A stretch of 20,074 nt of DNA, taken from a virus. Lineage: Duplodnaviria > Heunggongvirae > Uroviricota > Caudoviricetes. Position 1 is the first letter of the stretch. The number at the start of each line of letters is the position of its first letter. Positions 19,124 to 20,074 of the stretch are shown piece by piece. The stretch is taken from IMG/VR virus record IMGVR_UViG_2663763227_000012. One strand, written 5' to 3'. The notes under the pieces were generated by a model, which ran no database searches, was not told the DNA's origin, and was given only the letters and a program-made list of their open reading frames with translations. The translations under genes and the position numbers were made by a program.

Positions 19124-19653
19124 ACACAAAAATCAGATACGGCCTGTCGGCTGCCGTTCTGGCGCTGATTGGTGCTGGCGCATCTGCTCCTCAGATACTT
19201 GACCAGTTTCTGGACGAAAAAGAAGGTAACCACACAATGGCATACCGCGATGGTTCTGGCATATGGACCATCTGTCGGGGTGCCACAGTGGTGGATGGAA
19301 AAACCGTTTTTCCCAATATGAAACTGTCGAAGGAAAAATGCGACCAGGTCAACGCCATTGAGCGTGATAAGGCGCTGGCATGGGTGGAGCGCAATATTAA
19401 AGTACCACTGACCGAACCACAAAAAGCGGGTATCGCGTCATTTTGTCCCTATAACATTGGCCCCGGTAAGTGTTTCCCGTCGACGTTTTATAAGCGGCTG
19501 AATGCTGGTGATCGTAAAGGTGCATGCGAAGCGATTCGCTGGTGGATTAAGGATGGCGGACGCGATTGCCGCATTCGTTCAAATAACTGTTACGGTCAGG
19601 TTATTCGTCGTGACCAGGAGAGCGCATTAACCTGCTGGGGGATAGAACAGTGA
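19120..19653 (+). CDS. rrrQ: SAR-endolysin (phage lysozyme, P21 R / RrrD-like)
   Basis: 177-aa ORF with an N-terminal signal-anchor-release-like hydrophobic segment ([15 protein letters not shown]) followed by a lysozyme-like core ([13 protein letters not shown]...). Start overlaps the ydfR stop. Confidence 0.85.
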
Positions 19654-19816
19654 ATCAGATATTCATGGTGATTTTTCTCGTGTTGTCAGGATTTATCGTC
19701 GGAAATGTCTGGAGCGACCGAGGATGGCAAAAAAAATGGGCGGAACGTGATGCTGCCGCATTATCACAAGAGGTAAATGCTCAATTTGCTGCTCGAATAA
19801 TTGAACAGGGGCGAAC
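19650..19816 (+). pseudogene. Rz (i-spanin) 5' fragment truncated by IS insertion
   Basis: N-terminal TM helix then coiled-coil start ([55 protein letters not shown]) typical of Rz. The frame runs into the IS terminus at 19817 and stops at 19856. Confidence 0.6.
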
Positions 19817-20074
19817 TGAACCGCCCCGGGTTTCCTGGAGAGTGTTTTATCTGTGAACTCAGGCTGCCAGATCATCGTTTCCGATGGAAGCATAATAAGC
19901 TTTTTCTGCTTCTGCCGGAGGAGTATGGCCCAGCCTTTCCAGCAATCGTCGATTGTTATACCAGTCCACCCACGTGAGTGTGGCCAGTTCCACTTCTGCA
20001 CGGTTTTTCCAGCTCTTACGGTGTATTACCTCCGCTTTGTAAAGGCCATTGATGCTCTCCGCCATCGCGTTGTC
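19817..20074 (-). mobile_element. IS629-like (IS3 family) element, terminal portion; runs off the window
   Basis: Terminus TGAACCGCCCCGGGTTTCCTGGAGAGTGTTTTATCTGTGAACTC at 19817-19860, which I recognise as an IS629/IS1203 end, followed by the 3' end of an orfB-type transposase gene on the minus strand. Confidence 0.7.
19859..20074 (-). CDS. IS3-family transposase OrfB, C-terminal part (partial at window edge)
   Basis: Minus-strand ORF 19859..20065 encodes the C-terminal rve tail (...RKSWKNRAEVELATLTWVDWYNNRRLLERLGHTPPAEAEKAYYASIGNDDLAA). The frame continues upstream beyond the window. Confidence 0.8.
   Translation of the reverse strand, partial: DNAMAESINGLYKAEVIHRKSWKNRAEVELATLTWVDWYNNRRLLERLGHTPPAEAEKAYYASIGNDDLAA

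Follow-up and report, generated by a model that had tools for sequence, protein, structure and literature searches.

The stretch of DNA analysed here (20,074 nucleotides, hereafter the window) carries a prophage lysis cassette whose spanin gene breaks off after its first third, and the locus thus raises the question of what cut the gene, how much of the cassette survived, and what the lesion means for the prophage and for the identity of its host. We are highly confident that an IS629/IS1203-type element transposed into codon 56 of rzpQ, the spanin gene of a Qin-type prophage, with a loss of the spanin that is likely neutral, recent and strain-specific.

By alignment, positions 1-19816 of the window are a Qin-type lambdoid prophage of E. 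coli. This segment found a full-length match at 99.9% identity in more than 500 complete E. coli genomes, and across the stretch holding rrrQ and rzpQ (19400-19816) K-12 Qin and many other strains showed 100% identity to the window. In the O55:H7 strain USDA5905 a 99.9% identical, collinear prophage with an intact rzpQ adjoins rspB and extends onward into genes for terminase, head and tail. Through the alignments to USDA5905 and K-12, the window's prophage shows both the position next to rspB and the gene order of Qin (int-xis-exo-dicB-dicA-dicC...relBE-hokD-rem-ydfU-ydfT-cspF-cspB-essD-ydfR-rrrQ-rzpQ). The window and K-12 Qin are collinear in three blocks, and because K-12 lacks the equivalents of 1349-3532 and 7021-11819, the window represents a less deleted Qin allele than K-12. 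The exonuclease gene at 1828-4335 on the minus strand (835 aa) is full length in the window, and its K-12 Qin counterpart is truncated by IS2. The following gene stands in the early region:

10691-12004, plus strand: ISNCY-family transposase gene, 437 aa, intact-looking (NF033594, 456 bits).

This gene falls in the segment 7021-11819 that is missing from K-12 Qin. Immediately before it, positions 9025-10690 are poor in coding sequence, with no open reading frame longer than 85 codons and an upstream methyltransferase reading frame that looks truncated at its C-terminus; the O55:H7 counterpart of this interval is annotated as frameshifted pseudogenes. We take the coding-poor interval as indicating that the early region is decaying. 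The Qin prophage is cryptic in K-12, and the hit in rzpQ is a further lesion in a decaying prophage and not the crippling of a healthy phage.

Three lysis-region genes precede the interrupted one:

18592-18807, plus strand: holin gene essD/essQ, P21 S-type, intact, 71 codons (Pfam PF04971 "Bacteriophage P21 holin S", E=4.4e-34).
18812-19123, plus strand: ydfR (DUF1327), of unknown function, intact, 103 codons, between the holin and endolysin genes (Pfam PF07041, E=1.1e-53).
19120-19653, plus strand: endolysin gene rrrQ, lysozyme family, SAR-type N-terminus, intact, 177 codons (Pfam PF00959).

The 71-aa holin, YdfR and the endolysin are each identical as proteins to their K-12 counterparts EssD/EssQ, YdfR and RrrQ. 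An initial sequence-only reading of the window had proposed that the holin and SAR-endolysin remained intact, and these identities, together with the matches to PF04971 and PF00959, bear it out. The endolysin aligns over residues 9-174 with the chain of the P21 endolysin in structure 3hde and has a Gly/Ala-rich N-terminus, features which, as far as sequence can tell, fit a SAR endolysin, in which a weakly hydrophobic N-terminal segment of this kind stands in place of a cleaved signal ahead of a lysozyme fold. The cassette resembles the pinholin and SAR-endolysin cassette of P21, with a holin of the P21 S family and an endolysin that aligns with P21 R (3hde) including its N-terminal region; unlike the P21 cassette, it has the additional gene ydfR between holin and endolysin, and its spanin belongs to a different family and is disrupted. 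A scan of 18300-20074 for promoters and terminators returned none above shuffled expectation. The sole terminator-like site in that interval, itself not above this expectation, is a short hairpin with a T-run (CCGGGTTTCCTGG AGAGTGTTTT) at 19826-19847 on the plus strand, inside the IS end.

Within the gene directly 3' of the endolysin gene, the sequence changes character at a single base. The features that meet there are:

19650-19816, plus strand: 5' fragment of rzpQ (i-spanin), codons 1-55 and two bases of codon 56, identical to K-12 rzpQ.
19650-19856, plus strand: fused open reading frame of 68 codons (56 RzpQ residues, 12 IS-encoded residues and a stop), as given by the reading-frame listing and the K-12 alignment.
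19817-20074, minus strand: right-hand 258 nt of an IS629/IS1203-type element of the IS3 family, opposite in direction to rzpQ and running off the window and its contig, as given by identity to other copies.

The fused reading frame opens with a GTG that overlaps the rrrQ stop codon and closes with the TGA at 19854-19856. Its DNA from 19650 to 19817 equals the first 168 nt of K-12 rzpQ with no mismatch, and in both prophages the gene follows essD-ydfR-rrrQ and begins at a start codon, the same in each, that overlaps the rrrQ stop. Past the junction K-12 reads ...GGGGCGAACT ATAGCCCGTGATG... where the window reads ...GGGGCGAAC TGAACCGCCCCGGGTTTCC..., and the T at 19817 restores codon 56 (ACT). 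Intact RzpQ of K-12 is 165 aa long, encoded by 165 codons with rzoQ embedded in them; unlike it, the window's gene is cut at codon 56 and keeps 56 native residues, in a prophage that is otherwise the less deleted of the two. The profiles show the same truncation, in that the fused protein covers positions 3-60 of the 161 of Pfam DUF2514 and 15-67 of the 173 of the PHROG family phrog_312 'Rz-like spanin', as against 3-160 and 15-172 for K-12 RzpQ. Residues 4-21 are hydrophobic, the N-terminal transmembrane helix of an Rz-type i-spanin in a gene directly 3' of the endolysin. The fragment therefore encodes the transmembrane helix and the beginning of the periplasmic helical domain; only the N-terminal third of the profiles is matched, and the full periplasmic domain, including the C-terminal part that contacts the o-spanin, is missing. 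Judged from these alignments, the window's reading frame is a truncated remnant of an Rz-type i-spanin of the DUF2514/phrog_312 family.

The exact boundary was set by aligning three independent insertions of the element, which agree from TGAACC onwards and differ before it, so that the terminus, beginning TGAACCGCCCC, lies at 19817. A first BLAST search of complete genomes had put the start of the element at 19796; this start was discarded when the three-insertion alignment revealed the extra 20 nt to be chance similarity in a flank, favoured by the ranking. The sequence-only reading had held that an IS629-like end cuts Rz after 56 codons, with the IS terminus at 19817, and had proposed as a check that this terminus should match an IS3-family end. 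The truncation is upheld by the 168 nt of identity to K-12 rzpQ and by spanin profiles that match at their N-terminal end only, the coordinate is correct to the base, and the terminus matches copies elsewhere at 258 of 258 positions as well as IS3-family transposase profiles. Neither the match to rzpQ nor that to the IS terminus can be attributed to chance. The fused 68-aa protein has been deposited as KQI90585.1, "hypothetical protein AM261_12795 [Escherichia coli]", and occurs once in a collection of 15 billion proteins, on contig LIUZ01000012.1 of assembly GCA_001419865.1; as it joins part of a spanin to an IS end, it merits annotation as a pseudogene.

Two further features define the element:

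19817-19841, no strand assigned: terminal inverted repeat of the IS (TGAACCGCCCCGGGTTTCCTGGAGA), 23 of 25 positions matching the other end of a full copy.
19859-20074, minus strand: last 71 codons of the orfB transposase (DDE/rve), stop codon at 19859-19861 (rve_3, E=1.2e-10; NF033516 positions 313-369 of 369).

The score against NF033516, the IS3-family transposase model, stayed below the whole-protein cut-off only because the reading frame is a fragment. The element begins with TG at 19817, as expected of the 5'-TG...CA-3' ends with imperfect inverted repeats of the IS3 family, and the C-terminus of its DDE-type orfB reads on the minus strand towards the right end, also as in that family. 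Strain ZY22049 and a plasmid of ATCC 11775 have copies that match all 258 nt, and an IS629 copy in the O157:H7 strain 9234 matches 255 of the 258 (98.8%). The plasmid copy of ATCC 11775 is complete at 1310 bp; its two termini agree at 23 of 25 positions, its transposase occupies two frames, orfA and orfB, for which a programmed -1 frameshift is annotated, and a 3-bp duplication of AGG flanks it; the copy in strain 9234 is likewise 1310 bp long and is flanked by a CTG duplication. The window's element thus shares with IS629 (IS1203/IS3411) the identical terminal sequence TGAACCGCCCCGGG and the imperfect inverted repeats of about 25 bp, and the full copies that share its 258 nt have the length of 1310 bp, the two frames, the programmed frameshift and the 3-bp duplications of IS629; unlike a full IS629, the window holds these 258 nt only. 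The name IS629/IS1203-type is taken from the identity to the O157:H7 copies and from one RefSeq annotation, 'IS1203 family', IS1203 and IS3411 being isoforms of IS629 within the IS3 family. Under the ISfinder convention, isoforms of IS629 share at least 95% nucleotide identity with it. The full ATCC 11775 copy, identical in its end to the window's, is 95.95% identical overall to the O157:H7 copy, and the window's copy may accordingly be a non-O157 isoform.

The window stops about 2 nt short of the end of LIUZ01000012.1, a draft contig of 155,137 bp that breaks inside the IS, 258-260 nt into it (L003:10427). With the contig ending 258 nt past the junction, and with no other genome sharing that junction, it might be asked whether the assembler had made a chimeric contig end by joining rzpQ to an unrelated IS read. 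We find this hardly credible, as the sequence switches precisely where the IS inverted repeat begins, unlike a random chimera, both flanks are free of mismatches, and short-read assemblers normally give out a few hundred bases after entering a repeat.

Other IS ends were found in the Qin lysis cassette. On a metagenome contig (ENA ERZ27308797, k141_13617; L011:1-420) the right end of an IS3, ...ACGTGGGTAGGATCA, abuts rzpQ at ACTATAGCC, 1 nt from the window's junction; it may have inserted independently or reflect an adjacent deletion that started from an IS3 in rrrQ. An IS3 about 22 codons into rrrQ, with rzpQ intact downstream, is present in E. coli CUVET17-972 (L139:1324-3119) and in 14 other complete genomes. 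A Logan contig (SRR3184066_374; L017:1-60) has a further IS-like terminus, ...GGGGGCAGGTCA, which meets rzpQ some 70 nt downstream of where the window's gene is cut. The gene is thus also interrupted by other IS ends in contigs from metagenomes and from the SRA.

What lies on the far side of the window's element can be approached through the alleles of other strains. K-12 has its o-spanin gene, rzoQ, nested inside rzpQ in the +1 frame, with a lipoprotein signal whose lipobox is LTSC, a Pro-rich mature part and a PHROG spanin match. It starts 9 nt (GTG) or 27 nt (ATG) past the insertion point, at 12426 or 12444 in the K-12 locus (L004), where the insertion corresponds to 12417|12418. Because of this position, the whole of rzoQ and the last 109 codons of rzpQ would come to lie beyond the IS; rzoQ is absent from the window, in agreement with the expectation of the sequence-only reading that the Rz1 equivalent had been displaced or lost. 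On the pattern of the full copies with AGG and CTG duplications, and with the 3-4 bp reported for IS629 (PMC3271280), a duplication can be predicted here:

19814-19816, no strand assigned: predicted target-site duplication AAC, 3 bp, inferred.

The far junction that simple insertion predicts, namely the left end of the IS (CCCGGGGCGGTTCA), AAC and the continuation of rzpQ (TATAGCCCGTGATGAGG), had no match among species-representative genomes, and the two antisense reading frames predicted to span the junction were absent from the collection of 15 billion proteins. The 79-aa C-terminal fragment of RzpQ that gene calling would be expected to yield from the remainder occurs on 119 contigs, and among the ten places listed none belonged to the source assembly and none had an IS629-type end.

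The one visible end would equally terminate a rearrangement breakpoint, in which recombination between IS629-type copies, or an IS-mediated adjacent deletion or inversion, had taken out the 3' part of rzpQ, rzoQ and the prophage genes downstream, or moved them elsewhere. The contig end leaves the far side out of view, only 21 of 47 IS629 sites in O157 genomes have matching duplications on both sides (PMC3271280), and the IS3 end abutting rzpQ 1 nt away in the metagenome contig could itself have arisen by adjacent deletion from the IS3 in rrrQ. The break is nevertheless uninformative, as short-read contigs break in every multi-copy IS regardless, a junction at the precise IS terminus is expected under either scenario, and there is no positive sign of a deletion. 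We therefore regard a rearrangement as unlikely, though deserving of serious weight, and simple insertion remains the main and most likely reading of a locus that has one IS end (258 nt) in view and its far end and duplication outside the contig.

A search for the junction between rzpQ and the IS drew a blank in 5426 complete E. coli genomes, in the species-representative genomes, and at the 120 IMG/VR loci bearing the same IS end. In every collection searched it is a private event of one strain or assembly, and it could serve as a strain marker. A further question is whether the point in rzpQ is a preferred target of IS3-family elements, or whether inactivation of the Qin spanin is selected, such that the insertion would not be a random neutral hit. 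An IS3 end only 1 nt off in an unrelated metagenome contig, a further IS-like end about 70 nt on, and the IS3 in the neighbouring rrrQ of 15 complete genomes speak for it. These loci had, however, been pre-selected for a disrupted 5' part of rzpQ, that part is intact in more than 2000 complete genomes, and no consensus emerges from 122 distinct sequences flanking this IS end, with GGGG near the junction in about 7 of the 122, the level of chance. A preferred or selected site is thus quite improbable, and that rzpQ codons 55-56 (GGGGCGAAC|T) are a genuine IS3-family hot spot, or that loss of the Qin spanin has been repeatedly selected in E. coli, is a shade more doubtful still; in either case the event would go beyond a chance, neutral hit. 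We also considered that the element targets a mimic of its own end, given the GGGGCG by the junction and a similar flank among the top BLAST matches, and rejected this on the same 122 flanks (from IMG/VR and genomes), which lack a consensus and carry GGGG at about the chance rate.

Under the preferred reading, insertion by transposition, an element measuring 1310 bp when complete would have entered codon 56 of rzpQ antisense to the lysis operon by the usual IS3-family route, probably with duplication of AAC. The sequence itself shows the 5' third of rzpQ fused to the IS end and terminating after 12 foreign codons, with the upstream holin, ydfR and endolysin genes left untouched. Going by the K-12 and O55:H7 alleles, the other 109 codons of rzpQ together with rzoQ would at best lie 1.3 kb downstream behind the antisense element and at worst be gone, and rzoQ, if present, would be cut off from the late promoter by those 1.3 kb.

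The consequence can be argued by analogy with lambda. Like Rz/Rz1, intact RzpQ/RzoQ combine an N-terminal transmembrane helix and a periplasmic helical domain with a lipoprotein embedded in the +1 frame, and they are the last genes of the lysis cassette; RzpQ nevertheless belongs to the family DUF2514/phrog_312, the likeness is one of architecture, and the putative function of RzpQ/RzoQ is taken over from the lambda pair. By that analogy, an i-spanin reduced to a transmembrane helix and some 35 periplasmic residues should be unable to span the periplasm or bind the o-spanin, and loss of spanin function is a sound inference. The spanin complex is reported to be essential for outer-membrane disruption (PMC5295617), and on the lambda model expression of the cassette would be predicted to spare the outer membrane. 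Were the late operon expressed, holin and endolysin would degrade the murein, disruption of the outer membrane would fail or be inefficient, and lysis would be expected to be delayed or incomplete. We consider the insertion most likely neutral, recent and strain-specific because Qin-type prophages are largely inherited vertically and are decaying.

The sequence-only reading had further taken IS629 as a hint of an O157:H7-type host, and this part does not stand. The IS629-type element is present in 4138 of the 5426 complete E. coli genomes; its 25,469 occurrences include 5262 on plasmids, so that chromosomes and plasmids alike carry it. Against the O157 copy examined, the window's copy shows 3 mismatches in 258 positions, yet it is identical to copies in unrelated strains and on plasmids; hundreds of genomes match the flanking prophage equally well, and the record carries no label beyond Escherichia coli. 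An IS629-type element should not, then, be read as a sign of O157:H7. What the locus does share with O157:H7 is the pattern by which IS629 favours prophage genes, 62% of its O157 copies lying within prophages, and by which it adds to decay and strain diversity in the Sp and SpLE prophages (PMC3271280); unlike the O157:H7 sites, that in codon 56 of rzpQ occurs in 0 of 5426 complete genomes. IS disruption of this kind is commonplace and well understood, and the present case is new only as a strain-specific marker; its biological weight is small, as one more instance of the IS-driven decay of resident prophages that has been documented at length for IS629 in E. coli.

Two minor observations concern the element itself. 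The first 13 nt of its inverted repeat (TGAACCGCCCCGG, 19817-19829) are also printed in two papers on IS6110, and a search of the literature for the IS629 inverted repeat found these 13 nt printed only in such papers; the match to IS6110, a mycobacterial IS3-family element, suggests a shared terminal motif. At two loci (L006:1643-3458 and L007:1643-3458), copies of the IS with the identical 258-nt end are split by a group II intron that lies about 522 nt in from this end and carries an ltrA reverse transcriptase/maturase.
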